DNA from: an uncultured Spirochaetales bacterium
Lineage (GTDB): Bacteria; Myxococcota_A; UBA9160; JAFDET01
NCBI GenBank assembly: GCA_964442285.1
Contig: CAYTZH010000010.1
Span: 33,516-97,515, forward strand
Reading direction: 5' to 3'
DNA: 64,000 nt
The notes under the pieces were generated by a model. That model worked only from the letters and a program-made list of their open reading frames with translations, was not told the origin of the DNA and made no database searches. Of this stretch, positions 29,956 to 61,549 are shown one piece after another; within the stretch, counting starts at the first letter, position 1; each line of letters begins with the position of its first letter. The position numbers and the translations under genes are program-made.

Positions 29956-30051
29956 GATACCCCATCCCGGCCCGCACCGCGCCCGCCCCGTGCGCTCCCC
30001 CGCGCCACTTTGCGGGCCACGGCGCGGCCCCGCGCGCTACCCTGCGGCGCC

Positions 30052-36258: not shown

Positions 36259-36262
36259 GGCA

Positions 36263-38410: not shown

Positions 38411-39888
38411 GCCCGGGCTTCCGGCTCCCGCTCGATGTGACCCTTCCAGCCGGGGTGGGCCTCGAAGTGGAGGTTCAGGTCGATGTCGGAGAAGCGCATC
38501 CGGCGCTCTCCCGCCTCGTCGATCCAACACACCTCGAGGCTCTCGGGCTCGCCCCGGAAGGCGGTGATCCGCAGGCCGCCGGCGAGCTCCTCCAGGGCCC
38601 GGCGCAGCAGCGGGATCCGCCGCCACTCGAAGCCCATGATCCAGGTGAGCACCACGTCGACGCAGCCCCCGTCCTCGCCCGCGGCCAGCAGGCCCAGGGG
38701 GCGCGGGTCCGGCCCCATGGGCCCCTGGCCCTCGCCGGCCACGATGCCGTCGTAGACGTTGAGCACGCGGCGGGTGGACGCCTGCCCGAGGCGGCCCTCC
38801 TTGTCGGCGTGATAGAAGACCTTGTTGAGATCCAGGCAGGTGCGCCAGATGGTGTCGTTGCCCCACCAGTTGCCGGAGCGGGTCCGCTGGCCCAGGCCGC
38901 TGGCCTCCTCGGCGGCCCGGATCCGGCGGAACACCGCGCCCCCGATGCCGCGCTTGAGCAGCCGGCGGGCGAACTCGCCGCCGAAGGCGCGGAGCCGGGC
39001 GTAGGCGTCCGGCCGGGGGAACTCGTCGCCGCCCCCGGACTGGAAGCCTGCCCGGTAGTGGGGCAGCCAGTTCTTGTCGCCATTGATGCCGATGAGGTTC
39101 TTCATCGACAGGGTCACGCCAGCCTTCTTGTGGGTCTTGATCTTGGGCACGTTGATGGCCAGGTCGGCCGACAGCACCGTGCGCGCCACCAGGTACTCGT
39201 TCACGCCCCGGCTGTGGTGCTGGATCGTGACCTCCTCGTCGTAGTCGGCGCCCCGCAGCAGCCGCAGGTGCCGCTCGGACATGCTCTGGAACTCACTGGC
39301 AGTCCCGAGGTCGGCGGCCACGTAGCCCTTGGGATCGCCCGGCAGCTTGCGCTTCTCCGTCTGCACGCCGTGGGTGTGGCGGCCGAACTCGACCCGCAGG
39401 TCCCGGAAGGGCACCTCGAGGCCGATCTCCGTGTACCAGCCCAGGAACTCCGCGAGGCGGAGCTTCTCGAGCAGCACCTCGATCTCGCAGTCGTACTGGG
39501 GCGCGTCGGCGACCACCACCGAGCCGCCGGGGCCGACGGCCTTCCAGGCGTAGTCGATCAGCGGCCGCAGCACGGCGGGATGCGTGACCACCGCCTCGAC
39601 GGAATCGCCGTGGGTCTCGTTGAAGTGGCGCACGAAGTTCGGCTTCAGCACCACGCTCCCACCGGGCGTCACCAGGTCCGAGAGGGGCGACCAGTCGGGC
39701 GTGCCGAAGCGCGCGGCGTCGTAGCCCAGGCCCCGGAGCATCCGGCGGACCCCCGCGTAGATGCGGTTGCGGGGCTCGGTGTCCCCGGGCAGGAAGCCCA
39801 GCTCCGGATAGCGCTCCGGCGGGTGGTAGGGCAGGGGAAGGTCGTAGTCCTTCTGGCCCGTGAAGTGGATGACCGGCAGCGGCAGCAT
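38398..39888 (-). CDS. DUF362 domain protein
   Basis: ORF 38398..39888, with a perfect SD AAGGAGG before the ATG. Motifs SVVLKPNFV, INVPKIKTHKKAGVTLSMKNLIG and YDGIVAGEGQGP are typical of DUF362. Confidence 0.7.
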   Translation of the reverse strand: MLPLPVIHFTGQKDYDLPLPYHPPERYPELGFLPGDTEPRNRIYAGVRRMLRGLGYDAARFGTPDWSPLSDLVTPGGSVVLKPNFVRHFNETHGDSVEAVVTHPAVLRPLIDYAWKAVGPGGSVVVADAPQYDCEIEVLLEKLRLAEFLGWYTEIGLEVPFRDLRVEFGRHTHGVQTEKRKLPGDPKGYVAADLGTASEFQSMSERHLRLLRGADYDEEVTIQHHSRGVNEYLVARTVLSADLAINVPKIKTHKKAGVTLSMKNLIGINGDKNWLPHYRAGFQSGGGDEFPRPDAYARLRAFGGEFARRLLKRGIGGAVFRRIRAAEEASGLGQRTRSGNWWGNDTIWRTCLDLNKVFYHADKEGRLGQASTRRVLNVYDGIVAGEGQGPMGPDPRPLGLLAAGEDGGCVDVVLTWIMGFEWRRIPLLRRALEELAGGLRITAFRGEPESLEVCWIDEAGERRMRFSDIDLNLHFEAHPGWKGHIEREPEARACAS

Positions 39889-39902
39889 GTTCCTCCTTCT
39901 CG

Positions 39903-40565
39903 CTATTCCGGCACGAACGCGGACAGCCGCGCCACGACCCGCGGCGCGAACTCCTCGAAGGCGCGGTCCGCGGCCGCCTCGCCCCCGCTTCCCAGCGGGA
40001 TCGTGAACCGCACGAGGGCGCCGTCGGTCCTCCCCCGGGTCGCGCGATCCCAGAACAGGTCCACGATCTTGCGCCAGTCCTCGGCGATCACGCGGCCGCG
40101 GGAATGGTACCAGTAGTAGACCGCCTGCCGCGCGGGCCCCTTGGCGATCACGAAGCGCTTGATCCGCGCCGGTCGCTCGGGCATCCCCGGCATGTCGACC
40201 TCGAGCTGGCGGGCCCCCACGATGTCCCAGCCCGAGCCCGGCAGGCAGTGCTTCGGCGGATGGATGGCGTTCTCGCCGGCCCCGCCGCCCTCCCGGCGGA
40301 CCTGGGTGGCGTGGTAGCCGACGTAGAGATTCACCAGGGCGCGCGGCTCGTTGCGCACGAAGTTGCAGAGCAGGTAGTCGGTCACGCCGAGGTTGCGGAC
40401 CACCGGCGCCTCCAGCGCCTCGCGGCCCGCGCAGCGCCAGGCCCCCAGGGCGTCCGGGAAGGCCTCGAAGCGCTGGCGCTCCGGCACCACCTCCCCGGTG
40501 GCGAGGCCGTGGTAGACGTAGAGGTTCAGGCCCAGGAAGGCCGCGGCCACCAGGTAGCGGGTCAC
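39903..40565 (-). CDS. epsI: EpsI-family exosortase-associated protein
   Basis: ORF 39903..40610. I prefer the GTG at 40565, which overlaps the xrtA stop (GTGA) and gives MTRYLVAAAFLGLNLYVY; the ATG at 40610 is the alternative. The signature AIHPPKHCLPGSGW matches EpsI (H-x-P-x-x-C-L-P-G-x-G-W). Confidence 0.85.
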   Translation of the reverse strand: MTRYLVAAAFLGLNLYVYHGLATGEVVPERQRFEAFPDALGAWRCAGREALEAPVVRNLGVTDYLLCNFVRNEPRALVNLYVGYHATQVRREGGGAGENAIHPPKHCLPGSGWDIVGARQLEVDMPGMPERPARIKRFVIAKGPARQAVYYWYHSRGRVIAEDWRKIVDLFWDRATRGRTDGALVRFTIPLGSGGEAAADRAFEEFAPRVVARLSAFVPE

Positions 40566-41473
40566 GGCCGGGCCTCCGCGGGGCGCCCCGGGCCGCCCGG
40601 GCGTGGCCACAGGCGCGCCAGCAGTGCGGCCTCGGCCAGGAGCAGGGCGAAGGCCAGCCCGAAGGTGAACAGCCCCTCGGTCTCGTGGATGGCGCCCTCC
40701 GCCATCTCCTGGCCGAAGCGGTGGGTCAGGATCCCCGTCAGCGCCACCCGCAGGGCATTGACCAGGATCGCGATCGGGAGCGTGGAGAGCACGATGACGC
40801 CGCGCTCCAGCCAGGACTTCCGGAAGAAGTAGGCGAACACGACGCCCAGGGTGAGCAGCGCCATGAGCGAGCGGAGACCGCTGCAGGCGTCCTGGACGAA
40901 GAGCGTGACCTCGGCGAGGTGGATGATGTTGCCCTCGCGCAGGGCGGGGATGCCCAGCTCGTGGAGCAGCCGCACCGCCATGTCGGCGGCGAACAGCTGC
41001 AGCGGGAACGAGACGACGTTCACCAGGGACTGGGGCAGCGGGATCATCAGGAACAGGAAGAGCAGCGGGAAGGCCAGGACCCGGTAGGCGTCCCGGCCGA
41101 GGAGCAGCAGCACCAGGCCGTTGCAGGTGAGCACGAACCCCGTCCGCATGCTCATCTGCTCGACGCCCAGCCGGCCGACGGCCAGGGCCAGGACCCCCGC
41201 GGCCAGCACCGGCACGCCCCAGACGCTGGCCCGGAACGCGGTCCGCGCCAGGTCGTGGCGCCGCTCCCAGGCGAAGTAGAGCGCCAGGGGCGCCACCACG
41301 AAGCCGTGGGAGTAGCTGTCGTCGGTGGACCAGTGGCGCGCCATGTGACGGAGCACGGGTGCGTACACCGCCGTGGCCCCGACGAGGGCGACGGCGGTGG
41401 CGGCGAGCGCCGTTCGCGGAGACGCGCCCGGGCGGGCCGGGGGCCCGCCCGGGCTGTACGACTCCGTCGTCAA
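40562..41473 (-). CDS. xrtA: Exosortase (XrtA/EpsH type)
   Basis: ORF 40562..41473, TTG start. Motifs DDSYSHGF, LMIPLP, QDACSGLRS (catalytic Cys), VNALRVA (Arg) and AIHETEG (His). It is followed directly by epsI, and prsT lies in the same locus. Confidence 0.85.
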   Translation of the reverse strand: MTTESYSPGGPPARPGASPRTALAATAVALVGATAVYAPVLRHMARHWSTDDSYSHGFVVAPLALYFAWERRHDLARTAFRASVWGVPVLAAGVLALAVGRLGVEQMSMRTGFVLTCNGLVLLLLGRDAYRVLAFPLLFLFLMIPLPQSLVNVVSFPLQLFAADMAVRLLHELGIPALREGNIIHLAEVTLFVQDACSGLRSLMALLTLGVVFAYFFRKSWLERGVIVLSTLPIAILVNALRVALTGILTHRFGQEMAEGAIHETEGLFTFGLAFALLLAEAALLARLWPRPGGPGRPAEARP

Positions 41474-41492
41474 TGCCCCGGGTCCCGCCCCG

Positions 41493-41668
41493 CTAGAAGA
41501 GGGCGTAGATGAACGGCGCGACTGCAGAGCCCTCGGTCAGGACGATGAGCACCGAGAGCAGCAGCATCACCACCACGATCGGGCCGAGCCACCACTTCTT
41601 GCGGACCTTCATGAAGGTCCAGAGCTCGCCGAAGATCCCCAGCCGGCTTCCACCCGCCTTCGCCATGT
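41493..41668 (-). CDS. SxtK/DUF5989-like small membrane protein; N-terminus out of frame (G6 run) or expressed as a 39-aa form by ATGA-coupled reinitiation
   Basis: Below the ORF-track size cutoff. The frame ending at TAG 41495..41493 reads (G)IFGELWTFMKVRKKWWLGPIVVVMLLLSVLIVLTEGSAVAPFIYALF. The only in-frame ATG is at 41612 (39 aa). A well-placed ATG at 41668 (RBS GGAGAG) is in another frame and stops after 19 codons at TGA 41611..41609. A C6 run (G6 on the coding strand) lies at 41637..41642. Confidence 0.55.
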
Positions 41669-41676
41669 CTCTCTCC

Positions 41677-43416
41677 TCAGTCGAGCTCGTAGAGCTCTCG
41701 CCAGTCCACGTCTTCGCGCAGCTCCGGCTGGTCGCGCTTCCGCAGCACCTGGTTGCCCAGCACCAGCACGTCCATCTCGGTGCGCATGAAGCAGAGATAG
41801 GCGTCCCGGGGCGTGCACACGATCGGCTCGCCGCGGACGTTGAACGAGGTGTTGATCAGCACCGGGCAGCCCGTGCGCTGGTCGAAGGCCTGGAGCAGGT
41901 CGTAGAACTCGGCGTGGCTCTCCCGGGTGACCGTCTGCAGGCGGGCCGAGCCGTCCACGTGGGTCACGGCCGGCACCTCGCGGCCCTCGCGCACCTGGCA
42001 GACCAGCAGCATGTAGGGGCTCTCGCGGTCGATGTCGAACCACTCCCCCGCCTTCTCCGCCAGACAGGCGGGCGCGAAGGGCCGGAAGCTCTCGCGGTAC
42101 TTGATCTTGAGGTTGACCCGCTTCCAGTTCTCCTCGTCCCGGGCGTCGGCCAGGATGCTGCGGCTGCCCAGGGAGCGCGGACCCCACTCCATGCGTCCCT
42201 GGAACCAGCCCACGACGGCCCGCTCCTCGTCGATGAGGCGGGCCGTCTCCCGGATCATCTCGTCCCGGGGCAGCGTCTGGTAGACCGCCCCCGCGCCGTC
42301 GAGGAAGCTGCGGATGGCGTCGTCGTCGAAGGCGGGGCCCCAGTAGGCGTGATCCATGCGGCAGCGGCGCGGGTTACCCAGCACGCAGTTGTCGATGAAC
42401 AGGGCCACGCCGAGGGCGCTGCCCGCGTCGCCCGCGGCCGGCTGGATCCAGAGCTCCTCGAAGGGCCCCTCGCGGATGATCCGGCCGTTGGCGACGCAGT
42501 TGAGGGCCACGCCGCCCGCCATGCAGAGGTTCTTCATGCCGGTGCGGGCGTGGAGGTCCCGCACCATGCGCAGCACCACCTCCTCGGTGACCGCCTGCAC
42601 GCTGGCCGCCATGTCCCAGTGGAACTGCTCCATGGGCGACTCGGGCTCGCGCCGGGGCTGCCCGAAGAGCTCGGCGAAGCGCTTGTTGGTCATGGTCAGG
42701 CCGTAGTCGTAGGCGAAGTACTTCATGTCGAGCTTGAAGGAGCCGTCCTCGCGGATGTCGATCAGCTCCTTCTTGATCAGGTCGGCGTACTTCGGCGTGC
42801 CGTAGGGCGCGGCGCCCATGACCTTGTACTCGGCGCTGTTGACCTTGAAGCCCAGGTAGTAGGTGAAGGCGCTGTAGAGCAGACCCAGGCTGTGGGGGAA
42901 GCGGATCTCGTGCAGCAGCTCGAGCTGGTTGCCGCGACCGACGCCGAAGGTCGCCGTCGCCCACTCGCCCACGCCGTCGAGGGTGAGCACGGCCGCCTCC
43001 TCGAAGGGGGAGGGGAGGAAGGCCGCGGCGGCGTGACTCTGGTGGTGCTCCGCGAAGAGCACCTCGCCCGTGTAGCCGAGCTTGCTGGCGATCTGGTTCG
43101 GGACCCAGAGCTTCTCCTTCAGCCAGATCGGGATGGCCTTGGTGAACGACGGCAGGGAGCGCGGGAAGGTGGCGATGTACGTGGTGAGCATGCGCTCGAA
43201 CTTCACGAACGGCTTGTCGTAGAAGGCCACGTAGTCGACGTCGTCGATGTCGAGGCCGGCCTCCGCCAGGCAGTAGCGGGTGGCCTCCACCGGCAGCTCC
43301 GGGTCGTGGCGCCTGCGGGTGAAGCGCTCCTCGTGGGCCGCGGCGACCAGCTCGCCGTCGCGCAGCAGGGCGGCGGCGGCGTCGTGGTAGAAGCAGGAGA
43401 TGCCGAGGATGTTCAC
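41677..43416 (-). CDS. Carbamoyltransferase (NodU/CmcH/SxtI-like), paralog 3
   Basis: ORF 41677..43416, GTG start with RBS GGAGA. Sequence MNILGISCFYHDAAAALLRDGELVAAAHEERFTRRRHD, then HHQSHAAAAFLPSPF and TLDGVGEW, plus INTSFNVRGEPIVCTPRDA. Confidence 0.9.
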   Translation of the reverse strand: MNILGISCFYHDAAAALLRDGELVAAAHEERFTRRRHDPELPVEATRYCLAEAGLDIDDVDYVAFYDKPFVKFERMLTTYIATFPRSLPSFTKAIPIWLKEKLWVPNQIASKLGYTGEVLFAEHHQSHAAAAFLPSPFEEAAVLTLDGVGEWATATFGVGRGNQLELLHEIRFPHSLGLLYSAFTYYLGFKVNSAEYKVMGAAPYGTPKYADLIKKELIDIREDGSFKLDMKYFAYDYGLTMTNKRFAELFGQPRREPESPMEQFHWDMAASVQAVTEEVVLRMVRDLHARTGMKNLCMAGGVALNCVANGRIIREGPFEELWIQPAAGDAGSALGVALFIDNCVLGNPRRCRMDHAYWGPAFDDDAIRSFLDGAGAVYQTLPRDEMIRETARLIDEERAVVGWFQGRMEWGPRSLGSRSILADARDEENWKRVNLKIKYRESFRPFAPACLAEKAGEWFDIDRESPYMLLVCQVREGREVPAVTHVDGSARLQTVTRESHAEFYDLLQAFDQRTGCPVLINTSFNVRGEPIVCTPRDAYLCFMRTEMDVLVLGNQVLRKRDQPELREDVDWRELYELD

Positions 43417-43465
43417 GTGGGGGTCTCCGTTCGCGGCGCCGGACGTCCGGACGCGCGGGCCGTTC

Positions 43466-43744
43466 TCAGGACTGCGTCTTCGCGCGCTCCAGCTCGGCGG
43501 GCGCCGCCTCCGCCTCGTTCCAGGCCGTATCCGGCTCGCGCAGGCCGCGCTTGGCGAGCAGGTCCTGCCGGCCGATGTTGACGATCGTGGCCGCGATCCC
43601 GATCGCGGAGGCGTAGAAGAGCGACAGGATCACCTGGGTCTGCACCTCGCCGAAGTGGGCGACGATGCGCATCCAGCCGTGTCCGAAGGGCCGCAGCGGT
43701 GCGAGCACACGCCGCCAGCCGACTGTCTCCACGGCCGCGCTCAT
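43466..43744 (-). CDS. 92-aa membrane protein, SxtJ-like (C-terminal-half resemblance)
   Basis: C-terminal part of shadow ORF 43466..44980. The ATG at 43744 overlaps the wecB stop (ATGA). The sequence MSAAVETVGWRRVLAPLRPFGHGWMRIVAHFGEVQTQVILSLFYASAIGIAATIVNIGRQDLLAKRG resembles the conserved W..lg..n..iiL.l.y..v..P......r..g.D.L region I recall for SxtJ-family proteins. Confidence 0.5.
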   Translation of the reverse strand: MSAAVETVGWRRVLAPLRPFGHGWMRIVAHFGEVQTQVILSLFYASAIGIAATIVNIGRQDLLAKRGLREPDTAWNEAEAAPAELERAKTQS

Positions 43745-44886
43745 GAGGCCTCCCGCCCGCCGGTCCCCGGCTCCGGGGGCCCGCACAGGTCCCGTTGTAG
43801 CACGTCCACGATCCGGGCCGCGGCGCGTCCGTCCCAGCGTTCCGGGACGCGACCGGCCTTCGACTCGCCGTCGAGGATCTTGGTGACCTCGCTGCGGATG
43901 GTGGCCGGGTCGCGACCCACCAGCGTATTCGTTCCCTCGCTGAGCGTCACCGGCCGCTCCGTGTTCTCGCGCAGGGTGAGGCAGGGAACGCCGAGCACCG
44001 TGGTCTCCTCCTGGACGCCGCCGGAATCCGTGAGCACCAGCTTTGCATCGGCCATCAGCCGCAGGAAATCGAGGTATCCCAGGGGCTCGGTGGTGCGAAG
44101 CCGGGGCTCGCGCCCGCCGAGCAGGCGCGCGATGGCCGCACGGGTCCGCGGATGGACCGGGAACACCAGGGGAATCTCGCCGTGGATCTCCTCCAGCACG
44201 CCGAACAGCGCCCGCAGGTGGGTGGGGTCGTCCACGTTGGCCGGCCGGTGCAGGGTGAGCAGGCCGTAGCCCCCGGGGGTCAGGCCCAGCCGTCCCAGGG
44301 TGTCCCGCTCCCGGGCCCGCGCGAGATGGGCGCGCAGGGTGTCGATCATGACGTTGCCGGCGAAGTGGATCCGCTCGGGGGCCACGCCCTCCCGGAGCAG
44401 GTTCTGCTCGGCCGCGGGCTCCGTGGTGAAGCACCAGTCGGAGATGGCATCGGTGAGCACCCGGTTGATCTCTTCGGGCATGGTCCGGTCGAAGGAGCGC
44501 AGTCCGGCCTCCACGTGGGCCACCGGGATCCCGAGCTTGACGGCGGCGAGCGCGGAGGCCAGGGAGCTGTTGACGTCGCCCACCACCACCACGACATCCG
44601 CCGGGGACTCCTGGAGCAGGACCTCCATCTGGCGCAGGACCTCGGCCGTCTGGGCCCCGTGGGGACCCGAGCCGACGCCGAGATTGCGGTCCGGCTCCGG
44701 GATCCCGAGGTCCTGGAAGAAGTCCTCCGACATGGCGCGGTCGTAGTGCTGACCGGTGTGGACGAGGGTCACGCCGAAGGCGTCCCGGGCCCGGAGCTCG
44801 CGCAGGAGCGGGGCGATCTTCATGAAGTTCGGTCTCGCGCCCGCGACGGCGAGGATCCTCGGACGGGGCCGGTGCTCGAGGGCCAT
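43741..44886 (-). CDS. wecB: UDP-N-acetylglucosamine 2-epimerase (non-hydrolysing)
   Basis: Internal ATG at 44886 of ORF 43741..45006, with RBS GGAGA. Motifs ILAVAGARPNFMKIAPL, HTGQHYD, VVVVGDVNSSLA, VAHVEAGLRSFD and TDSGGVQEE. Confidence 0.9.
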   Translation of the reverse strand: MALEHRPRPRILAVAGARPNFMKIAPLLRELRARDAFGVTLVHTGQHYDRAMSEDFFQDLGIPEPDRNLGVGSGPHGAQTAEVLRQMEVLLQESPADVVVVVGDVNSSLASALAAVKLGIPVAHVEAGLRSFDRTMPEEINRVLTDAISDWCFTTEPAAEQNLLREGVAPERIHFAGNVMIDTLRAHLARARERDTLGRLGLTPGGYGLLTLHRPANVDDPTHLRALFGVLEEIHGEIPLVFPVHPRTRAAIARLLGGREPRLRTTEPLGYLDFLRLMADAKLVLTDSGGVQEETTVLGVPCLTLRENTERPVTLSEGTNTLVGRDPATIRSEVTKILDGESKAGRVPERWDGRAAARIVDVLQRDLCGPPEPGTGGREAS

Positions 44887-44957
44887 GATCTCCTGCTCTT
44901 CTCCCCGCTTCTCCCCGCGGGTGGTGGGTTGCGGGCGGTGCCTCGGGCTTCGTGAAA

Positions 44958-44975
44958 TTTGCGAGAAGCGTGCCA
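44958..44975 (-). promoter_or_regulatory. Sigma54 (-24/-12) promoter for the wecB ... xrtA-epsI operon
   Basis: The minus strand reads TGGCACGCTTCTCGCAAA. GG and GC are in the exact -24/-12 register of the consensus TGGCAC-N5-TTGCA, with one -12 mismatch. The -12 GC lies about 75 nt upstream of the wecB ATG. Two sigma54-activator genes are in the window. Confidence 0.65.
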
Positions 44976-45188
44976 GGCACCTCGCCGAGGCGCTCGGAGC
45001 CGGCACCTCAAAGCCCTAAAGTATTGCGTTCGTCTCGCGAAAGGGAATGGGGCTGCCTCTGTGTGCCGCAGGACGGAAAATCCGTTCCCACGTGCCGAAC
45101 CAGTTCCCACAAGTGGAAGGGGTTTACATATGGGCCGAAGCCCGCAAACTCCGTTCGGCCGTGTGGGCCCTCGAGGGGAGGCCGCTGA

Positions 45189-45206
45189 CGGCACGGCGAT
45201 CGCAAA
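45189..45206 (+). promoter_or_regulatory. Sigma54 (-24/-12) promoter for the response-regulator/export operon
   Basis: The plus strand reads CGGCACGGCGATCGCAAA. It has the same GGCACG-N4-TCGCAAA architecture as the divergent promoter. The -12 GC lies about 60 nt upstream of the ATG at 45264. Confidence 0.6.
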
Positions 45207-45263
45207 GCCTCCCGCGACCGGAACGTAGGGAAGCAGCCTCGTCCGCGGAGGAATGACGCCGGA

Positions 45264-46688
45264 ATGTCCGAGCCTTTTCGCGTTCTCGTGATCGACGACG
45301 ATCCCGGGGTCCGCGACTACCTGGAGGCCCTGGTGACGCGCCAGGGCTACGAGGTCTTTGCCGCCGCGGGTGGTGAGGAGGCGCTGCAGTCCCTCGAGCA
45401 GAGCCGGCCCGACCTGGTGACCCTCGACGTGGTGCTGCCCGGCATGGATGGTCTCGAGACACTCCGCCAGCTCAAGCAGAAGCTGGCCGACGTGCCGGTC
45501 ATCATGCTCTCGGGCCACGGCCAGGCCCGCACCATCGTCGAGGCCATGAAGCTCGGCGCCTCGGACTTCCTGCGCAAGCCGTTCGAGGTGGAGGAGCTCG
45601 AGCTGGCCTTCCAGAAGGCGCTCGAGAAGCGCGCCCTGAAGCAGGAGGTGGAGGACCTCCGGCGCCGCTCCCGGGGCGAGTCGGAGCGCATGATCCTCTT
45701 CGGGGACAACGAGAAGATGCGCGGGGTGCGCGAGATCATCGAGCAGGTCGCCGACACCGACATCACCGTCCTGATCCGGGGCCCGAGCGGCACCGGCAAG
45801 GAGGTGGTGGCCCGCAGCATCTTCGAGCTGTCGAGCCGTCGCGACCGTCCCTTCGTCAAGGTCAACTGCGCCGCGCTCCCCTCGGAGCTCCTGGAGAGCG
45901 AGCTCTTCGGCTTCGAGAAGGGGGCCTTCACGGGCGCCCAGAAGCGCAAGCTCGGCAAGTTCGAGTACGCGAACCACGGCACCATCTTCCTGGACGAGAT
46001 CAGCGAGATGCACCCCAACCTCCAGGCCAAGCTCCTGCAGGTGCTCCAGGACGGGGAGTTCTCGCGCCTCGGCGGGGAGAGCGACATCCGCGTCGACACC
46101 CGGGTGCTGGCCGCCACCAACCGCAACCTGGAGGAGGCGGTGCGCGACGGGTCGTTCCGCGAGGACCTCTTCTACCGCCTCAACGTGGTCGCCATCCAGA
46201 TCCCGCCGCTGCAGGATCGGCGCGACAGCATCCCGCTGCTGGTGGACCACTTCCTGCGCAAGTACAACGAGCAGTACAAGAAGGAGGTGAAGCAGCTCTC
46301 CTCCGAGACCCTGGCCGTATTCATGCAGTACGGCTGGCCCGGCAACGTCCGGGAGCTCGAGAACATGGTGAAGCGCATGGTGGTGCTCGGGAACGAGGAC
46401 ACCGTGCTGGAGGACATCCGCCTCCAGGCTGCGCGGGCCGAGACCGCCGACGCGGAGGCCGACGACCCCCTGGACCTGACCGAGCTCGACGCCGACCTGG
46501 CCGACGGCAAGGGCATCGACCTCAAGTCGATCGCCAAGCGGGCGGCCCAGCTGGCGGAGAAGCGGGTGATCGAGAAGGTGCTCGCCCAGACCCGGTGGAA
46601 CCGCAAGGAGGCCGCCGAGCGTCTGCAGATCAGCTACAAGGCGCTGCTCTACAAGATGAAGGAGAACGGGCTCAGCGAGGGCCGCTGA
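45264..46688 (+). CDS. Sigma54-dependent response regulator (NtrC family: REC + AAA+ + Fis-type HTH), orphan copy heading the export operon
   Basis: ORF 45264..46688. REC domain VLVIDDD and DLVTLDVVLPGMDG. Walker A GPSGTGKE, the sigma54-contact loop GAFTGA, and the C-terminal HTH NRKEAAERLQISYKALLYKMKENGL. Confidence 0.9.
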   Translation: MSEPFRVLVIDDDPGVRDYLEALVTRQGYEVFAAAGGEEALQSLEQSRPDLVTLDVVLPGMDGLETLRQLKQKLADVPVIMLSGHGQARTIVEAMKLGASDFLRKPFEVEELELAFQKALEKRALKQEVEDLRRRSRGESERMILFGDNEKMRGVREIIEQVADTDITVLIRGPSGTGKEVVARSIFELSSRRDRPFVKVNCAALPSELLESELFGFEKGAFTGAQKRKLGKFEYANHGTIFLDEISEMHPNLQAKLLQVLQDGEFSRLGGESDIRVDTRVLAATNRNLEEAVRDGSFREDLFYRLNVVAIQIPPLQDRRDSIPLLVDHFLRKYNEQYKKEVKQLSSETLAVFMQYGWPGNVRELENMVKRMVVLGNEDTVLEDIRLQAARAETADAEADDPLDLTELDADLADGKGIDLKSIAKRAAQLAEKRVIEKVLAQTRWNRKEAAERLQISYKALLYKMKENGLSEGR

Positions 46689-46709
46689 GCGCGTTTCCAG
46701 GGAGCCCCG

Positions 46710-47312
46710 ATGTCCAAGCGTTTCGGTCGGCGAATCCCCCTCGCCTGCATCCTGGTCGTCCTCGCCACGGCGTGCGCGAGCCGCGTGGTGCCCCCGCCCC
46801 CGGAAGTGGACGTGCTCGAGCGGGACACCTACGTGATCGGGCACTCCGACGTCCTGCGGATCGACGTCTGGAAGCAGCCCGAGCTCTCGGTGGCGAACGT
46901 GCCGGTGCGGCCCGACGGCAAGATCTCGGTGCCGCTGATCGACGACGTGCAGGCGGCGGGGCTGACGCCCGAAGAGCTCAAGGAGCTGCTCACCAAGGCG
47001 ATGGCCGAGTACGTCACCGCGCCCGACGTCACCGTCCTCGTGATCGCGATCAACAGCAAGACCATCCACCTGATGGGCGAGATCGTGCGCCCCAACGCCT
47101 ACATCGTCTCCCGGGACATGCGGGTGCTGGACGCCCTCGCCGTCGCCGGTGGGTTCACCGCCTACTCGAACAAGCGGCGGATCAAGATCCTGCGCCCGAG
47201 CCCCGCCGGCATCGCCGAGTACCGCTTCGACTACGAGGCCTATCTCGACGGCAAGACGCCCGAGGCGAACATCCTGCTCTATCCCGGCGACACCATCGTG
47301 GTGCCCGACTGA
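46710..47312 (+). CDS. Polysaccharide export protein (Wza/EpsE-like; Poly_export + SLBB), lipoprotein
   Basis: ORF 46710..47312. Signal and lipobox ILVVLATAC. Motifs YVIGHSDVLRIDVW and PVRPDGKISVPLIDDVQAAGLTPEEL. Confidence 0.85.
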   Translation: MSKRFGRRIPLACILVVLATACASRVVPPPPEVDVLERDTYVIGHSDVLRIDVWKQPELSVANVPVRPDGKISVPLIDDVQAAGLTPEELKELLTKAMAEYVTAPDVTVLVIAINSKTIHLMGEIVRPNAYIVSRDMRVLDALAVAGGFTAYSNKRRIKILRPSPAGIAEYRFDYEAYLDGKTPEANILLYPGDTIVVPD

Positions 47313-47314
47313 CC

Positions 47315-49117
47315 ATGGGACGGGTCCAAGCTGTCGCCGCCTGCGCCTCGGCCGCGCTCCTGGTGCTCGGGTCTCCGGGCGCCGCGCACGAGGTCCAGAT
47401 CGGCCTGCAGACGACCATGGACTACGACAGCAACATCTTCAACAGCGCCGGCGACGTGACCGACGACGGGATCTGGCGCTTCAGTCCCTCGATCCGGCTC
47501 CTCCACGAGCAGGGCGACTTCACCTACGACGTCCGCTTCGTCCCGCGCTTCGAGACTTTCATCGTCCAGTCGGATCTCGAGGCCTGGGACTACAACGTGG
47601 CGGCCCTCTTCGGCCTGCGGCTGGGCCCGCGGACGCAGATTCGGCTCTCCGAGCGCTTCCTCCAGACCCGCAGCCTCAACCGCGCCGAGGTCCTCCTGAC
47701 CCCGGAGGAGCAGGTCGAGCTCGGCGTAATCGGTCAGCCCGACATCGAGTTCAACCGCAACCTGACCAAGCAGAACGTAGTGGATCTCTCCCTCACCCAC
47801 GGCTTCAGCGAGCGGCTCACGGGGAACCTCGTCGGGCAGTACTCGATCTTCATCCCGGAGTTGGAGAACAACTTCACCAGCAGCACGTACGCGGCCACCG
47901 GCAGCCTCGACTACGCCCTGACCCGGCGGACCAGCATCGGGGGCGGTCTCGGCTACACCCACCAGCTCTTCGAACAGACGACCACGCAGGACACGACGAC
48001 GACCGACTTCTATCGCCTGTTCGGCCGGCTCACCCACCAGATCGATCCGACCCTGACCGTGAGCCTGCAGGCCGGCCCCAGCTTCATCGACTCCGACACC
48101 GCGGACGACATCACCCAGCAGACGGTGCTCCGATTCCCGGCCCGCAACCTCACCACCAGCACCGAGCCGGACCGGCTGAACCTGCTCGACCCGGGGCTCT
48201 GCCCGACGCTCGACGACGGCACGCCGTTCAACGCCAACACCTGCGGAATCTTCCAGGGCAACCGGCGGCTCGAGTTCGAGCGGACACAGAACGTGATGAT
48301 CCAGGGCGTCGCCGGCCAGGTGAACGGCTTCTACATCGACAGCCAGGTGCTGCGGACCGACGTCCTGGATCAGGTGGTCGACATCTCCCTGGTGGGCGAT
48401 CGCCCCGATTCCGGCTCCAACATCACCTTCTTCGCCGCGGCCTCGGTCGTCAAGTCGTGGGAGACCGTGACCGCCGCGCTGCGCTACACCCGGCGGGACA
48501 GCGGCAGCAGCGGCTTCGGCACGAGCACGATCGTGGACACGGTCACGGGGACTCTCAGCTGGGAGCCCGCCCGCAAGTGGCGGCTCAGCCTGAGCGGGAT
48601 CTGGACCCAGCAGTCGTCCGCCACCGAGCAGGCCGTCAACCGGGTCACCCTGCGGCCCCTGACCCTGCGCGAGCTCAACGAGGAGTTCGGCGGGGTCCTC
48701 AACCCGGAGGAGAGCGCGAGCGCCATCCTGCGCGATCCGGACGACGACCTGGTGCTGCTGGTCGAGAACCTGAACAACGGCCTTCCCGGCAACCCGCTCG
48801 GTCCGGACGGCGACGACCGCTTCGACCTGAGCGAGCTCCCGGACGCCCAGGAGCTCACGGACGAGGCCCTGGACACCGTGGTCGGGGCCGAGGTGGTCGC
48901 CCTGCGCCGGGTCACGATCGACGACGCCATCGACATCCAGACCTTCGGCGCCACGGTCCGGCTGGAGCGGGAGCTGACCCGGCAGTCTCGGGTCTTCCTC
49001 GACCTCGCCTACCGCCGCCAGGACAGCGCCCGCGGAAGCGTCACCGGAGGCGTCGTCCTGAACACCTACAGGGCCAGCCTGGGATTCGTCTGGACGTTCG
49101 ATCCCTGGCGGTTCTGA
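47315..49117 (+). CDS. Outer-membrane beta-barrel protein of PEP-CTERM/EPS loci (600 aa)
   Basis: Internal ATG at 47315 of ORF 46595..49117. Signal peptide MGRVQAVAACASAALLVLGSPGAAHE. Alternating beta-strand pattern and an aromatic C-terminus LGFVWTFDPWRF. An acidic insert lies around 48664..48876. Confidence 0.7.
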   Translation: MGRVQAVAACASAALLVLGSPGAAHEVQIGLQTTMDYDSNIFNSAGDVTDDGIWRFSPSIRLLHEQGDFTYDVRFVPRFETFIVQSDLEAWDYNVAALFGLRLGPRTQIRLSERFLQTRSLNRAEVLLTPEEQVELGVIGQPDIEFNRNLTKQNVVDLSLTHGFSERLTGNLVGQYSIFIPELENNFTSSTYAATGSLDYALTRRTSIGGGLGYTHQLFEQTTTQDTTTTDFYRLFGRLTHQIDPTLTVSLQAGPSFIDSDTADDITQQTVLRFPARNLTTSTEPDRLNLLDPGLCPTLDDGTPFNANTCGIFQGNRRLEFERTQNVMIQGVAGQVNGFYIDSQVLRTDVLDQVVDISLVGDRPDSGSNITFFAAASVVKSWETVTAALRYTRRDSGSSGFGTSTIVDTVTGTLSWEPARKWRLSLSGIWTQQSSATEQAVNRVTLRPLTLRELNEEFGGVLNPEESASAILRDPDDDLVLLVENLNNGLPGNPLGPDGDDRFDLSELPDAQELTDEALDTVVGAEVVALRRVTIDDAIDIQTFGATVRLERELTRQSRVFLDLAYRRQDSARGSVTGGVVLNTYRASLGFVWTFDPWRF

Positions 49118-49165
49118 GGCATCTCTCCCCCCAACTCCGCGGAAAAGCAGGCGAAAAGGACGACC

Positions 49166-50806
49166 ATGAACGCGCAAGAGGGTCTTCAGCTTCCGGATCT
49201 CCGAGGAATGCTCACCCGGCGTGCCCCCGTGGCTGCCGCCGTGGCCGGGGCGGTCTTCCTGCTCTCCATCGTCCTGGCCGCCGTGCTGCCGAACCAGTAC
49301 GAGGCCTCCACGACCATCCTCGTCGAGCCCCAGACCATCTCGACGCAGCTGGTCGAGGCCCAGATGGCCAGCACCGACCTCAACGCGCGCCTCCACCTGA
49401 TGTCCATGCAGATCCTCTCGCGGCCCCGGCTCTCGCGGATCATCGACGACCTCGATCTCTACGAGGACGAGTCGGAGCAGATGACCCGGGCCGAGGTCAT
49501 CGAGCTGATGCGGGACCAGATCCGGGTGGAGCCGGTGCTCCCGGAGCTCGAGCAGACCCTCCGCACCGTCCGCCGCGACATCCAGATCAACACCTTCCGG
49601 CTCTTCTTCCAGAGCGATCGGGCGGCGCTGGCCGCCAAGGTGGCCAATCGGCTGGCGAGCGACTTCACCGACGAGCACATCCGCGAGCGGGTGAACGTCA
49701 CGAGCGACACCGCGGAGTTCATCGAGGCGGAGCTCGCCCGGCTGGCCGTCCAGATCCAGGACGTGGAGAGCCGCATCGCCCAGGTGAAGGCGGAGAACCC
49801 GGGCAAGCTCCCCGAGGACTTCAGCGCCAACCAGCGGCTGTACGAGCGGGCCGTGGACAACCTGCGCCTCGCCCAGCGGAAGCTGGCGGAGGCCGAGAGC
49901 GACGAGGCCTTCTATCGGCAGCAGGCCGCCGTTTCGTCGAACGTCTATCCCCAGGACGCCGCGAGCCCCGAGCGCCGGCTCGACCTGCTCGAGCTCCAGC
50001 TCGCCGAGTACCTCTCCCGCGGGCTGACGGAGAAGCACCCGGACATCGTGGCGACCCGCCTGGAGATCGAGCAGGTGAAGCGCACCGTCGCCGCCGGGGC
50101 CGACCTGGAGGGTGGCGAGCCGCCCAAGAGCGTGGCCCAGCAGACCGCCGAGTCCGAGCAGCGCCGGGCGGCCCTCCAGGTGCGCGCGACCCAGGAGGAG
50201 ATCGGCCGGCTCGAGGCGCAGGTGGCGGAGGTGCAGACCCGCATGGCGGAGACGCCCCGGGTCGCGGAGCAGCTGGCGGCCCTGGAGCGCGACTACGAGC
50301 ATCTGTTCGAGAGCTTCCAGAGCTACAGCAACAAGCGTCTCGAGGCGGCGGTCTCGGCGAACATGGAGCGGCGCCAGAAGGGCGAGCAGTTCCGGGTGCT
50401 GGAGCAGGCCGTTCCGCCCCCGAGCCCCACTTCGCCGAACCGGCCGTTGATCGTGCTGCTGGGGCTGTTCCTGGGCGTGGCCCTGGGCGCGGGCGTCGGC
50501 GTCCTGATGGAGGCCGCGGACCCCTCGTTCCACGTGGCCCGGGACCTCCAGACCGCCTTCCGGATCCCGGTGCTGGCCCAGATCCCGAACATCTTCCTGG
50601 AGTCGGACCGGGTGGCCCAGCGCCGTCGGCGGGCCGTGGTGGCGGCCGCCACGGTGGCGATCGTCGGCGTGGTGCTGATGGGCGCGGCCGCCGGCTACTT
50701 CGTGGTGAACGGGGCACCGGGATGGCTCAGCGGCGGCGACGAGGCCGAGCAGTCGGAGCCGGCGCCGGACGCGGCGGCCCTCGCGGGGCCGGGGCGGACG
50801 GTCTAG
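49166..50806 (+). CDS. Polysaccharide chain-length determinant (PCP/Wzz-GumC type, PEP-CTERM-locus subfamily-like)
   Basis: ORF 49166..50806. An N-terminal TM segment is followed by NQYEASTTILVEP. A long coiled-coil periplasmic region follows, then the P-rich motif AVPPPSPTSPNRPL before the C-terminal TM segment. Confidence 0.85.
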   Translation: MNAQEGLQLPDLRGMLTRRAPVAAAVAGAVFLLSIVLAAVLPNQYEASTTILVEPQTISTQLVEAQMASTDLNARLHLMSMQILSRPRLSRIIDDLDLYEDESEQMTRAEVIELMRDQIRVEPVLPELEQTLRTVRRDIQINTFRLFFQSDRAALAAKVANRLASDFTDEHIRERVNVTSDTAEFIEAELARLAVQIQDVESRIAQVKAENPGKLPEDFSANQRLYERAVDNLRLAQRKLAEAESDEAFYRQQAAVSSNVYPQDAASPERRLDLLELQLAEYLSRGLTEKHPDIVATRLEIEQVKRTVAAGADLEGGEPPKSVAQQTAESEQRRAALQVRATQEEIGRLEAQVAEVQTRMAETPRVAEQLAALERDYEHLFESFQSYSNKRLEAAVSANMERRQKGEQFRVLEQAVPPPSPTSPNRPLIVLLGLFLGVALGAGVGVLMEAADPSFHVARDLQTAFRIPVLAQIPNIFLESDRVAQRRRRAVVAAATVAIVGVVLMGAAAGYFVVNGAPGWLSGGDEAEQSEPAPDAAALAGPGRTV

Positions 50807-50821
50807 GAGGCGGGGCGGCCG

Positions 50822-51718
50822 ATGTACCTGGAGTACTACGGGCTCGTCCGAGGGCCCTTCGAGATGACGCCCGACCCGTCCTTCCTCTACCTGGGGGAGA
50901 CCCACCGGGAGGGGCTGGCGACCCTCGTCTACGGCGTCCGCTCCCGGAAGGGCTTCCTCCTGCTCACCGGCGAGGTGGGGACCGGGAAGACCACGCTGCT
51001 CCACGCCCTGCTCTCCCAGCTCGACGCCAGCACCGCCTCGGCCTTCATGTTCAACCCCCGACTCGAGCCCCTGGACTTCTTCCGGATGCTCTTCGACGAG
51101 TACGGGCTGGAGGAGGGGTGCGAGACCAAGGCCGAGTACCTGATGGCGCTCAACCGCTTCCTGATCGAGCGGCTCGAGCGCGACCAGCCCACCCTGCTCA
51201 TCGTGGACGAGGCGCAGAACCTCTCGCCCGAGATGCTCGAGGAGATCCGGCTGCTCTCCAACCTGGAGACCTCCACCTCGAAGCTCATCCAGATCATGCT
51301 GGTGGGACAGCCGGAGCTGAAGGAGCTGCTCGCCCGTCCCGAGCTGCGCCAGCTCCGGCAGCGAATCGTGCTCCGGCACCACCTGCGTCCGTTCGATGCA
51401 GAGGAGACCACCTCCTATGTGCAGGAGCGGCTGCGACTTGCGGGCTACACGGGAAAGGGGATCTTCAAGCGTTCGGCGCTGGCGGCGCTGTACGAGGTCA
51501 CGGGGGGCGTCCCCCGGCTCGTCAACGTCGTCTGCGACGGGGCTCTGCTGCTCGGCTACGCCCGGGATTGGAGCACCCTCGGACGCGAGGCCATCCTCGA
51601 GGTGGCTCGGGATCTGGACTTGATCGAGGCGGGGGCGTCCCCTGCGGGGACCCCGGCTTCCGGAGAGTCGGGCCGAGGGGAACGGCGCCGACGCGGCCTA
51701 TTCGGGATGTTCCGCTGA
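50822..51718 (+). CDS. ExeA-like AAA ATPase (XrtA/PEP-CTERM system-associated ATPase type)
   Basis: ORF 50822..51718. N-terminus MYLEYYGLVRGPFEMTPDPSFLY, Walker A GEVGTGKTT, and Walker B LLIVDEAQNL. Confidence 0.85.
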   Translation: MYLEYYGLVRGPFEMTPDPSFLYLGETHREGLATLVYGVRSRKGFLLLTGEVGTGKTTLLHALLSQLDASTASAFMFNPRLEPLDFFRMLFDEYGLEEGCETKAEYLMALNRFLIERLERDQPTLLIVDEAQNLSPEMLEEIRLLSNLETSTSKLIQIMLVGQPELKELLARPELRQLRQRIVLRHHLRPFDAEETTSYVQERLRLAGYTGKGIFKRSALAALYEVTGGVPRLVNVVCDGALLLGYARDWSTLGREAILEVARDLDLIEAGASPAGTPASGESGRGERRRRGLFGMFR

Positions 51719-51740
51719 GCGGAGCCCGGGGAGCAGAGCC

Positions 51741-52595
51741 ATGGCCAAGGTATACGATGCCCTGCGAAGGGCGGAGGAGCAGCGGCAGAGCCGCGCCGGA
51801 GAGGCCCAACAGCCCGGGGTGGCCGCCCCCCTGAAGTGGGAGCCCCCGGCCTCGGCCGCCAAGGTGTCCAAACCGCCGTTCTGGCAGGTCTGGCGCCGCT
51901 TCCGCCGCCGCGCCGCGCCCGCCGACGTCGGCGGCGACGTGAACAAGCGCCGCATCTCCCTGCTCCAGCCCGACTCCTTCGTGGCCGAGCAGTTCCGCAC
52001 CCTGCGCGCCCGGATCGACTCCATCGCGGCCGAGCGACCCATCCGCACGGTGGTCGTGACCAGCCCCATGGCGGGGGAGGGCAAGAGCACCGCGGCGATC
52101 AACCTGGCCCTGGTCACGGCCATGCAGCTGGAGCGCCGGGTCTGCCTCGTGGACTGCGACATGCGCAAGCCCAAGGTCCACCGGGCCCTGGGTCTGCAGC
52201 CCGAGGTGGGGCTGGCCGAGGTGCTCTCCGGCGAGGCGCCGCTCGAGAAGGCCCTGATCCCCGTAGAGGGCGTCGGTCTGCAGGTCCTCGCGGTGCGGCG
52301 GCAGCCGTCGAACCCCGCGGAGCTCCTCACCACGGACCGGATGCGGGAGACCATCGAGGAGCTTGCGCGCAGCTTCGATCGCGTCATCCTGGACACCCCC
52401 GCGGCCCTGGCGCTCCCGGACGCCAAGATCGTGAGCGACCTCTGCGACGGGATCGTGATGGTCGTGCGGGCGGACGTGACCCCGCAGCAGGACGTGGAGT
52501 CCACGCTCGACTTCCTGGACCGCCGGCGGCTGCTGGGCCTGGTCCTCAACGGAGCCGAGGTCCCCCAGGGGCGCTACGCTTACTACCCCGGCTGA
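51741..52595 (+). CDS. BY-kinase-type tyrosine autokinase domain protein (EpsG-like)
   Basis: ORF 51741..52595. Walker A SPMAGEGKST, Walker A' CLVDCDMRKP, and Walker B VILDTPA. A short C-terminal Tyr cluster GRYAYYPG. Confidence 0.8.
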   Translation: MAKVYDALRRAEEQRQSRAGEAQQPGVAAPLKWEPPASAAKVSKPPFWQVWRRFRRRAAPADVGGDVNKRRISLLQPDSFVAEQFRTLRARIDSIAAERPIRTVVVTSPMAGEGKSTAAINLALVTAMQLERRVCLVDCDMRKPKVHRALGLQPEVGLAEVLSGEAPLEKALIPVEGVGLQVLAVRRQPSNPAELLTTDRMRETIEELARSFDRVILDTPAALALPDAKIVSDLCDGIVMVVRADVTPQQDVESTLDFLDRRRLLGLVLNGAEVPQGRYAYYPG

Positions 52596-52648
52596 TCGCG
52601 GCGGACATTCCCGACGGCGGCCGCGGACCCGTCGCCACGGAGCACTCG

Positions 52649-53761
52649 GTGAAGGCATCGGTCGACCTCGGCGCGCTCCTGGTCTCCTTCGTCGTAGCCC
52701 TGACCGTGGCCGCCCTGGCCACGCCCATCGTCTCGCGCCTGGCGCGCGCCTTCGAGGTCATCGACAAGCCGGGCGAGCGCAAGGTGAACGAGCGGGCCAA
52801 CATCCCCCTGCTCGGGGGCATCGCGGTGGCCCTGGGCGTCTTCGTCGGGCTCTCCGTGGCCGTGCTGCTCACCGGCGACCAGGTCGAGTACCGGGAGCAC
52901 CTCGAGGCCCTGCTGATCGGCGGGACGCTCCTGCTCGGGATCGGGGCCTACGACGATCGCTTCGCACTCCCCGCCACGCCCAAGTTCGCGGTGCAGATCG
53001 CCGTGGCGGCCATCGCCATCTACTACGGCTTCTCGATCGCCTACTTCCGGGATCCGCTCACCCAGACCTCCTGGGCCCTGCCCACGGCCGTGGTCTGGAT
53101 CCTCACGACCCTGTGGATCGTGGGGATCACCAACGCCATGAACCTGATCGACGGCCTGGACGGGCTGGCCACCGGCGTGGGGGCCATCATCGCGGCCACC
53201 CTCACCCTGGTCTGCTACCAGGCGGGTGAGCCCCTGGGCGTGTATCTCGGCGTCGTCTTCGTCGGGGCCCTGCTCGGGTTCCTGCCCTTCAACTTCCAGC
53301 CCGCGCGCATCTTCCTGGGCGACACCGGGGCGCTGTTCATCGGCTACGTCCTGGCACTGCTGGCCCTGGAGGGCTACCGGAAGTTCTCCGTGCTGACCTT
53401 CGTCGTCCCCATCCTGGCGCTGGCCGTGCCGCTCCTCGACACGGTCCTCTCGGTGCTGCGCCGGCTGCGACGCGGGAAGAACCCCTTCACGGCGGACCGC
53501 CTGCACATGCACCACCGCCTGCTGCAGTCCGAGGGCTCCCAGCGGGCTGCCGTGCTCTCGATCTACTTCCTCACGGCCTGCTTCTGCGTGATCGCCCTCT
53601 CGTTCACGAACCTGGAGGGCTTCGCGGCGATCGTGTTCCTGGCGGCCGTGATCCTGCTGACCATCCGCCTGCTCCGGAACCTCGGCTTCTTCGACCCGCC
53701 GCCCGACGAGGGCGAGCCGGCGCCGCGGGCGGCGGCGTCCGGGGAGGGCAAGGGGTCGTGA
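52649..53761 (+). CDS. WecA/MraY-family polyprenyl-phosphate N-acetylhexosamine-1-phosphate transferase (initiating transferase)
   Basis: The GTG at 52649 lies within ORF 51836..53761. Motifs [33 protein letters not shown] and RLHMHH. Confidence 0.85.
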
Positions 53762-58101: not shown

Positions 58102-58136
58102 GCGTCCCGGAGACGGGGAGCCGGGGGAGGACGGAC

Positions 58137-58799: not shown

Positions 58800-58845
58800 G
58801 CCCCGGGCGCCTCAGGCGACCCCCCGATCCACCGATACGTCCCGC

Positions 58846-60026: not shown

Positions 60027-60030
<4 letters not shown>
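58846..60030 (+). CDS. Soluble PAS-domain sensor histidine kinase (NtrB-like); PrsK position but no membrane domain
   Basis: ORF 58846..60030. No hydrophobic segments. PAS-like N-terminus. H-box LAHELRNPL, and G-boxes DSGPGVP and GSGIGLA. Confidence 0.85.
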
Positions 60031-61499
<1,469 letters not shown>

Positions 61500-61549
61500 C
61501 AATCCGGGCTGCCCCGACTTCCGCTGCGGGGTCCCCCGGAGGTCACGCC

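Follow-up and report, generated by a model that had tools for sequence, protein, structure and literature searches.

How is transcription controlled at a locus where two large sets of genes for exosortase-linked polysaccharide production are read away from each other out of one short intergenic region? The locus lies in a stretch of 64,000 nucleotides (nt) from an uncultured Spirochaetales bacterium (GTDB lineage Bacteria; Myxococcota_A; UBA9160; JAFDET01), positions 33,516 to 97,515 of the forward strand of contig CAYTZH010000010.1 in assembly GCA_964442285.1, which we refer to as the window. The set on the minus strand begins with wecB and includes the exosortase gene xrtA and epsI, and the set on the plus strand begins with the gene of a response regulator and includes genes for polysaccharide export. 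Our analyses suggest, with a probability that we place at about 0.72, that the region between wecB and the regulator gene is a bidirectional, enhancer-dependent control region, in which a shared cluster of boxes would provide the upstream activating sequence (UAS) for an activator of the NtrC family acting on two outward-facing sigma-54 promoters. An initial annotation of this DNA had proposed the divergent sigma-54 promoters and their service to the flanking gene sets, a prediction to which the comparison of related loci described below lends support.

The intergenic region comprises 377 base pairs (bp; 44887..45263), from the wecB start codon (ATG 44886, minus strand) to that of the regulator gene (ATG 45264, plus strand), and it harbors one predicted sigma-54 promoter of the -24/-12 type on each strand (Table 1). 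Both sites present the invariant GG-N10-GC register of sigma-54 promoters exactly, they are identical to each other at 13 of 18 positions, and they are oriented outward, each toward its flanking gene. Measured from the 5' end of the motif, the minus site lies 89 nt from the start codon of wecB and the plus site 75 nt from that of the regulator gene, and both sites are thus intergenic and face a gene whose start codon lies within the range of tens to about 250 nt. With the transcription start placed approximately 12 nt past the C of the -12 element, the predicted starts fall near 44949 for the minus promoter and near 45215 for the plus promoter, with leaders of about 63 nt for wecB and about 49 nt for the regulator gene.

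The initial annotation had located both motifs and given their register, their identity at 13 of 18 positions and the length of the intergenic region, all of which we recovered unchanged from the sequence, and the leaders of 50-65 nt that it had predicted toward the flanking genes agree with our estimates. It had also described the TCGC form of the -12 element as unusual. This form is uncommon, being found in 3 of 87 published Desulfovibrio vulgaris promoters, yet it has precedent, and the description does not extend to the lineage of the window, in which TCGC, alongside TGGC, is the conserved form of the -12 element. The near-absence of the consensus T at position -14, with TCGC or TGGC in its place, might define a lineage-tuned subclass of sigma-54 promoters.

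The strength of the two sites was assessed with two matrices, one built from the 87 published D. vulgaris sigma-54 promoters (Kazakov et al. 2015) and the other an approximate sigma-54 matrix. With the D. vulgaris matrix, the minus site reaches 16.9 bits, close to the training median of 18.2, and ranks first among approximately 128,000 positions of the window; with the approximate matrix, the minus and plus sites rank first and third. Dinucleotide shuffles of the window yield about 0.08-0.28 sites of minus-site strength. When only the intergenic region is shuffled, the probabilities obtained are p = 0.000 for the minus site and p = 0.075 for the plus site with the D. vulgaris matrix, and p = 0.003 and p = 0.020, respectively, with the approximate matrix. 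The extended consensus TGGCACG-N4-TTGCW is matched with one mismatch by the minus site and with two by the plus site, which carries a C at -26 and another at -14. A matrix scan, which the initial annotation had recommended and which was carried out here within the window, upheld the minus site, ranked first by both matrices, and left the plus site weak, at rank 10 with the D. vulgaris matrix. The minus site is significant by score alone; the plus site is not, and is recognized by its position and its conservation.

In DNA with a G+C content of 71.4%, both matches could in principle be chance occurrences devoid of promoter function. The pattern GGCACG-N4-TCGCAAA, allowing for one mismatch, matches only the two sites in the 64 kb, with 0.07 matches expected, although this comparison is post hoc, the pattern having been taken from the sites themselves. 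The looser pattern GGCAC-N5-TYGC has six matches in the window, four of them elsewhere, against an expectation of 2.46, and a match of 15.3 bits to the D. vulgaris matrix lies inside a coding region. Chance does not readily account, however, for two sites that share one 377-bp intergenic region and point outward at promoter-like distances from the start codons, nor for the conservation of both over a largely unconserved background in ten loci, and we consider it a very improbable explanation.

A repeat search pairs the same sequences in a different manner, as the arms of a 17-nt imperfect inverted repeat (44958-44974 and 45190-45206) that are 76% complementary and 215 nt apart, and which could be read as the ends of a mobile or recombination element. 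What the arms have in common, nevertheless, are the sigma-54 consensus positions and the run of three A's behind them, whereas none of the four N4 positions matches. Across orthologues the arms vary independently of each other, each keeping the sigma-54 consensus, and nothing resembling such an element was found between or beside them. Because the arms share mainly sigma-54 consensus positions, we rejected this candidate, to which we assign next to no credence.

A candidate enhancer, missed in the initial annotation, is provided by a cluster of three boxes of the PrsR type, each about 17 nt long and some 19-21 bp apart, that lies between the two sites; once the boxes are included, the layout is that of the known architecture combining a PEP-CTERM box with a sigma-54 promoter. 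The module was also detected in a repeat search as a direct repeat with 19-nt spacing, and the three-box cluster is unique within the window. Two box-like matches elsewhere (1467-1483 and 57549-57565) lie within coding regions and were set aside. In orthologous loci the boxes conform to the general form GGAA-N5/6-TT(A/C)C(A/C), repeated with a spacing of about 20 bp, and the last box ends in TTACA. In the window, the minus promoter lies approximately 97 nt to the left of box 1, and a spacer of 60 nt separates box 3 from the plus site, the end of which (45206) is in turn 57 nt from the regulator ATG.

The region was also searched for other kinds of control element. The TTACACA end of the box module, taken as part of a sigma-70 promoter with TTCCCA as its -35 element, was rejected for its poor spacing and poor -10 match, and a scan of the intergenic region for sigma-70 consensus promoters found none. 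Likewise, scans for sigma-70 promoters and terminators over the intergenic region and both gene runs produced no promoter match and no informative terminator. An Rfam scan of the whole window returned no RNA family, and hence no riboswitch or leader RNA accounts for the intergenic region. Between the minus promoter and box 1 there is a short AT-rich island, CCCTAAAGTATTG, that is invariant in an alignment of the window with three close relatives (L010, L082 and L088), the conserved island of this alignment reading CCCTAAAGTAT. Its position would suit a DNA-bending protein; compared by eye with the consensus of integration host factor, the island showed no match.

To what extent are these elements conserved? 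Scanning one genome per species, we obtained approximately 22 metagenome-assembled Myxococcota loci, with regulators 61-84% identical to that of the window, which show the same divergent synteny. The three-box module is present upstream of the regulator gene in every orthologous Myxococcota locus with enough upstream sequence to inspect, and in alignments of the orthologous intergenic regions conservation is concentrated in the minus site, the boxes and the plus site. The distance between the minus site and the boxes is maintained in L009, L010, L012, L081, L082, L086, L088, L101 and L103, and a plus-strand site occupies the same position in L009, L010, L011, L012 and L021, as well as in the distant L037 and L042. 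In total, nine related loci present both sites and four more present the plus site. The three-part layout is thereby common to ten loci, namely the window and the nine in which the minus site is kept, of which L009, L010 and L012 stem from the genome set. Across these ten loci, the distance from the minus site to box 3 is 129-151 nt, and that from box 3 to the plus site is about 50-60 nt (49-60 nt in eight of the nine relatives) in all except L009, where it is about 77 nt.

An independent test was provided by scanning metagenome contigs with a pattern composed of box 3 and the plus site only, the minus site being outside the query. The scan returned 24 matches, three of which lie directly upstream of complete regulator orthologues (L082, L088 and L103), and the same box context was found at contig ends in L081, L086 and L101. 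A strong minus-strand site is present in all six of the loci fetched, with scores of 11.8-20.2 bits and at 127-149 nt from box 3. Furthermore, a box of the form GGAAATATATTTC(A/C)CA precedes a regulator homologue of about 47% identity in an Anaerolineales bin (L037, 5334-5421) and in an unclassified bin (L042, 5881-5967), and in both a canonical sigma-54 site of the TTGC type, scoring 15-17 bits, is located 53-58 nt past the box and just upstream of the regulator gene. We also ran an unbiased search for shared 8-mers in 22 intergenic regions, allowing one mismatch, and discarded it as a signal finder: the observed maximum of 18 loci, against null maxima of 14-17, did not separate the signal from the GC-rich background, and the search recovered little beyond fragments of the box module.

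Several results weigh against the proposed bidirectional control region. The plus site obtains 7.5 bits with the D. vulgaris matrix, which is less than the tenth percentile of the known promoters (12.6) and more than the training minimum (4.6), and dinucleotide shuffles are expected to contain about 12 sites of that strength per window. With a matrix for the PrsR orthologue of D. vulgaris, DVUA0057, built from the binding sites listed by Kazakov et al. 2015, box 3 of the window scores 7.7 bits, which ranks fourth in the window and is less than the lowest training score (11.6), whereas box 3 of its orthologues scores 16.2 bits in L010, 16.9 in L082 and L088, and 21.0 in L012. In 15 of the 22 orthologous Myxococcota loci (listed as L001-L008 except L005, L013-L020, and L034), the boxes and a GAFTGA-bearing regulator are kept and no sigma-54 site was detectable on either strand with either matrix. 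Neither of the two sigma-54 activators encoded in the window reaches the cut-off of the PrsR model TIGR02915 (502.6 bits), the regulator adjacent to the region scoring 404.5 bits and the second activator 396.7. A six-frame translation of the 64-kb window contained no RpoN-box peptide, and rpoN is not in the window. Finally, a gap of 203-317 nt (41474-41676, possibly to 41360) separates the carbamoyltransferase gene from xrtA, a gap of similar size being estimated in L001, and an internal promoter or some other small feature may lie within it.

The low score of the plus site leads to the alternative that only the minus site works, and that the regulator and export genes use a different, unrecognized promoter at which the boxes are perhaps an operator. 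The 15 relatives that keep the boxes alone point in the same direction, as some other promoter must serve those operons. Nevertheless, the plus site is conserved in position in the five relatives named above and recurs in other phyla (L037 and L042), its CGGCACG form is found again in L010 and L088, its spacing from the boxes fits that reported by Haft et al. 2006, and the region yielded no match to a sigma-70 consensus promoter. This alternative therefore appears improbable to us.

The box-only loci themselves admit a simple account. Site-bearing loci are scattered over a rough neighbour-joining tree of the regulators, outgroups included, and L005 seems to preserve both sites in decayed form, the simplest reading being that the promoters were lost repeatedly while the boxes were kept. 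Scans of three box-only loci for sigma-70 consensus promoters and terminators found no promoter and no informative terminator. Because 15 loci keep the boxes in the absence of a detectable site, the boxes do not always accompany sigma-54 promoters; it is conceivable, though we hold it unlikely, that they outlive the promoters they serve and have a second, sigma-54-independent role, for instance as an operator at an unrecognized promoter. If so, the same polysaccharide and exosortase operons would have been switched repeatedly between enhancer-dependent and other control.

Which protein, then, would bind the boxes? The initial annotation had counted two sigma-54 activators in the window, and both are indeed present with an intact GAFTGA motif: the response regulator encoded directly next to the intergenic region and a second activator encoded further downstream in the plus set. 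In Pfam searches both proteins show the domains Response_reg, Sigma54_activat, AAA_lid_14 and HTH_8, that is, a receiver, an AAA+ sigma-54 interaction domain and a helix-turn-helix of the Fis type, an architecture like that of PrsR, and both score higher on the AtoC model (457 bits) than on that of PrsR. GAFTGA and Walker A motifs are kept in the adjacent regulator and in all 22 of its orthologues. The adjacent regulator is the likeliest binder, since wherever related loci were inspected its gene was linked to the boxes.

An alternative accepts the promoters and the boxes as real and assigns the boxes to the second activator, or to a motif shared by both activators. The order of kinase, activator and PrsT-like genes around the second activator fits the PrsK-PrsR-PrsT neighbourhood described by Haft, the TIGR02915 scores of the two activators are nearly equal, and DVU0110 and DVUA0057 of D. 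vulgaris are predicted to share one motif. Conversely, the boxes lie directly upstream of the gene for the first regulator in every related locus inspected, and the kinase encoded here is a short soluble PAS kinase and not the membrane-bound PrsK. We regard this assignment as somewhat unlikely.

Under the preferred bidirectional arrangement, the three-box cluster would serve as a UAS shared by both promoters. A phosphorylated activator of the NtrC family, for which linkage points to the adjacent response regulator, would bind the boxes and oligomerize and, through DNA looping and at the expense of ATP, would open complexes of sigma-54 holoenzyme pre-bound at the two outward -24/-12 promoters. 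The minus promoter would then read into wecB, the carbamoyltransferase gene, xrtA, epsI and the genes beyond, and the plus promoter into the regulator's own gene, in positive autoregulation, and into the export and chain-length genes.

How does this arrangement compare with known systems? Upstream of PEP-CTERM genes of Proteobacteria, a 17-nt motif with TTTACA at its end, which may occur more than once, is separated by a spacer of 62.8 +/- 10.6 nt (range 32-92) from a -24/-12 sigma-54 motif that lies 71 +/- 38 nt from the start codon, and PrsR was proposed as the binder (Haft et al. 2006; PMC1569441). These sites, a few of which precede other genes, were found in genomes that also encode an exosortase, EpsI, a PrsT-like protein and regulators of the NtrC type. 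The window presents the same layout, with a 17-nt box of the same ending, two further boxes, a spacer of 60 nt and 57 nt to the ATG. It differs from the regions of Haft et al., which mainly precede genes for single PEP-CTERM proteins, in that its region is not located upstream of a PEP-CTERM protein gene and precedes instead the regulator and export set, in having a second promoter that faces wecB and xrtA, and in its host, which belongs to a Myxococcota lineage. PEP-CTERM tails were searched for in the open reading frames (ORFs) of the window and none was found.

A counterpart at the level of the regulon is that of DVUA0057, a response regulator of D. vulgaris Hildenborough with a GAFTGA motif and 17-nt sites of the form TGTCGGA-N5-TTACA (PMC3333781, PMC4641369), which was bound upstream of PEP-CTERM genes in DNA-affinity-purified-chip (DAP-chip) assays (Rajeev 2011, PMC3333781; Kazakov 2015, PMC4641369). 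Its regulon includes a predicted sigma-54 operon, DVUA0036-41, that encodes PrsT, an export protein, a chain-length determinant, a tyrosine kinase and an ATPase (Kazakov 2015, PMC4641369). The content of this operon is nearly that of the plus set of the window, and box 3 of the window bears some resemblance to the DVUA0057 site. In contrast, the left half of the box reads GGAA in the window and TGTCGGA in Desulfovibrio, the activators of the window fall below the PrsR cut-off, its box scores 7.7 bits though those of close relatives score 16-21, and its genes are arranged divergently, with that of the regulator itself among them. In Aquincola tertiaricarbonis, the start site and -24/-12 promoter of pepA have been mapped, its dependence on rpoN established by experiment and an enhancer predicted upstream (PMC9850573). 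That promoter serves a single PEP-CTERM structural gene in a betaproteobacterium.

Two divergent sigma-54 promoters sharing an activator-binding region within a short intergenic region are also found at zraP/zraSR of Escherichia coli, where the activator operon is positively autoregulated; this system differs from that of the window in its zinc and envelope-stress regulon, in its unrelated binding motif, and in encoding ZraR together with its kinase. In Myxococcus xanthus, EpsI/Nla24 is an NtrC-like sigma-54 activator that belongs to an exopolysaccharide locus and is needed for polysaccharide production. No exosortase or PEP-CTERM context is known for that locus, nor any resemblance between its binding sites and the boxes of the window.

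Set beside these systems, the region represents an established architecture in a new lineage, in a bidirectional and, as predicted here, autoregulated form, and not a new kind of system; as exosortase-linked polysaccharide production is already known to come under sigma-54 control, it should not surprise specialists. It extends the logic of PEP-CTERM box and sigma-54 promoter from Proteobacteria and Desulfovibrio into uncultured Myxococcota, and a single compact bidirectional region appears to control the genes of the sorting enzymes (xrtA and epsI), the polysaccharide export machinery and the regulator itself. The region furthermore constitutes a well-defined 250-bp piece for reporter and DNA-binding work, and the search pattern gained from it (a box, about 55 nt and a sigma-54 site) could be used to trace the regulon in metagenomes.

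The features considered here are collected in Table 1.

Table 1. Control elements, flanking genes and co-directional gene runs of the locus, with positions counted along the window.
Feature	Position	Strand	Remarks
Minus co-directional run, putative transcription unit	32210..44886	-	12.7 kb
epsI	39903-40610	-	EpsI model TIGR02914, 96.3 bits (cut-off 42.8)
xrtA	40562-41473	-	XrtA model TIGR03109, 215.4 bits (cut-off 208)
wecB (UDP-GlcNAc 2-epimerase), first gene of the minus set	43741..44886	-	TIGR00236, 332 bits (cut-off 210)
Predicted minus-strand sigma-54 (-24/-12) promoter	44975..44958	-	TGGCACGCTTCTCGCAAA; GG 44974-44973, GC 44962-44961
Short AT-rich island	45013..45025	none	CCCTAAAGTATTG; midway between the minus promoter and box 1
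Candidate enhancer (UAS), three PrsR-type boxes	45072..45128	+	boxes of about 17 nt, about 19-21 bp apart
Box 1	45072-45088	+	GACGGAAAATCCGTTCC
Box 2	about 45091-45109	+	
Box 3	45112-45128	+	AGTGGAAGGGGTTTACA; ends in TTTACA
Predicted plus-strand sigma-54 (-24/-12) promoter	45189..45206	+	CGGCACGGCGATCGCAAA; GG 45190-45191, GC 45202-45203
Response-regulator gene (sigma-54 activator), first gene of the plus set	45264..46688	+	GAFTGA at residue 220
Plus co-directional run	45264..64000	+	all gaps below about 100 nt; one transcript putative
Second sigma-54 activator gene	60030..61499	+	GAFTGA; directly 3' of the PAS histidine kinase gene (58846-60030)

The minus run comprises, in order, wecB, a small conserved ORF, a carbamoyltransferase gene, xrtA, epsI, genes for a DUF362 protein and an oxidoreductase, an AMP-ligase-like gene and a gene for a protein of 882 aa, and it ends against a convergent gene for a DUF3473 polysaccharide deacetylase (approximately 31290-32234, plus strand). 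Its extent coincides with the transcription unit of about 12.7 kb, from wecB to the 882-aa gene, that the initial annotation had outlined. The products of xrtA and epsI score above the cut-offs of their models and export genes associated with the system lie nearby, which identifies an XrtA exosortase system. The predicted leader of wecB contains CTTCTCCCCG in perfect tandem duplicate (44898-44917), close to the 5' side of the ribosome-binding site.

The plus run encodes, up to manC (which ends at 58101), the regulator, a polysaccharide export protein of the PEP-CTERM type, an unknown protein of 602 aa, a chain-length determinant, an ATPase, a tyrosine kinase, a WecA-like protein, Gmd, an epimerase, a UDP-glucose dehydrogenase and ManC. 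The initial annotation had drawn the plus set from the regulator to manC, and these genes are indeed co-directional, but the run continues past manC to the end of the window, with genes for a Crp-like regulator, a PAS histidine kinase, the second activator and a PrsT-like protein with TPR repeats, the last of which runs off the window. The models for the export protein, chain-length determinant, ATPase, tyrosine kinase and PrsT all give strong matches, yet these fall below the equivalog cut-offs, the PrsT-like protein scoring 303.6 bits against a cut-off of 312.2. The genes downstream of manC (58098-64000, plus strand) form a second regulatory block, in which the Crp-like regulator is of the cyclic-nucleotide-binding type and the PAS histidine kinase is soluble; upstream of this block, neither a box nor a sigma-54 site was detected.

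The small ORF of the minus run, located between wecB and the carbamoyltransferase gene (43469-43735, minus strand), encodes about 89 aa that include the motif ..FGEVQT.. and a hydrophobic segment. The ORF is conserved in L001, L005, L009, L010 and L012, and at some loci it takes the place of wecB as the gene nearest the minus promoter. Searches of Pfam and NCBIfam gave no match for its product, which we take to resemble the small SxtJ-like partners of carbamoyltransferases. Carbamoyltransferase genes of the NodU/CmcH type occur three times in the window (1-1582, minus strand; 25000-26922, plus strand; 41677-43416, minus strand), the first of them identified by eye only, and the same 64-kb polysaccharide region encodes a LarA-like racemase (28501-30036, minus strand).

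Two further sigma-54-like sequences were observed in the window. The 15.3-bit match, CGTGGCCCGCTTCGTGCTC (55085-55103, plus strand), is the second best in the window and lies in the sense direction within the epimerase gene, about 600 nt upstream of the UDP-glucose dehydrogenase gene, where it may be either a chance match or an internal site. The other, TTGGCAACGGCCTGGCAACAAAGTGGCAGA (1765-1792, plus strand), has no box nearby; within it, GG-N10-GC is matched and the -12 element takes the TGGCA form. This sequence is intergenic, flanked by the first carbamoyltransferase gene (minus strand, with its start at 1582) and a gene that begins near 1888 on the plus strand, and represents a weak candidate for a third sigma-54 promoter in the window.

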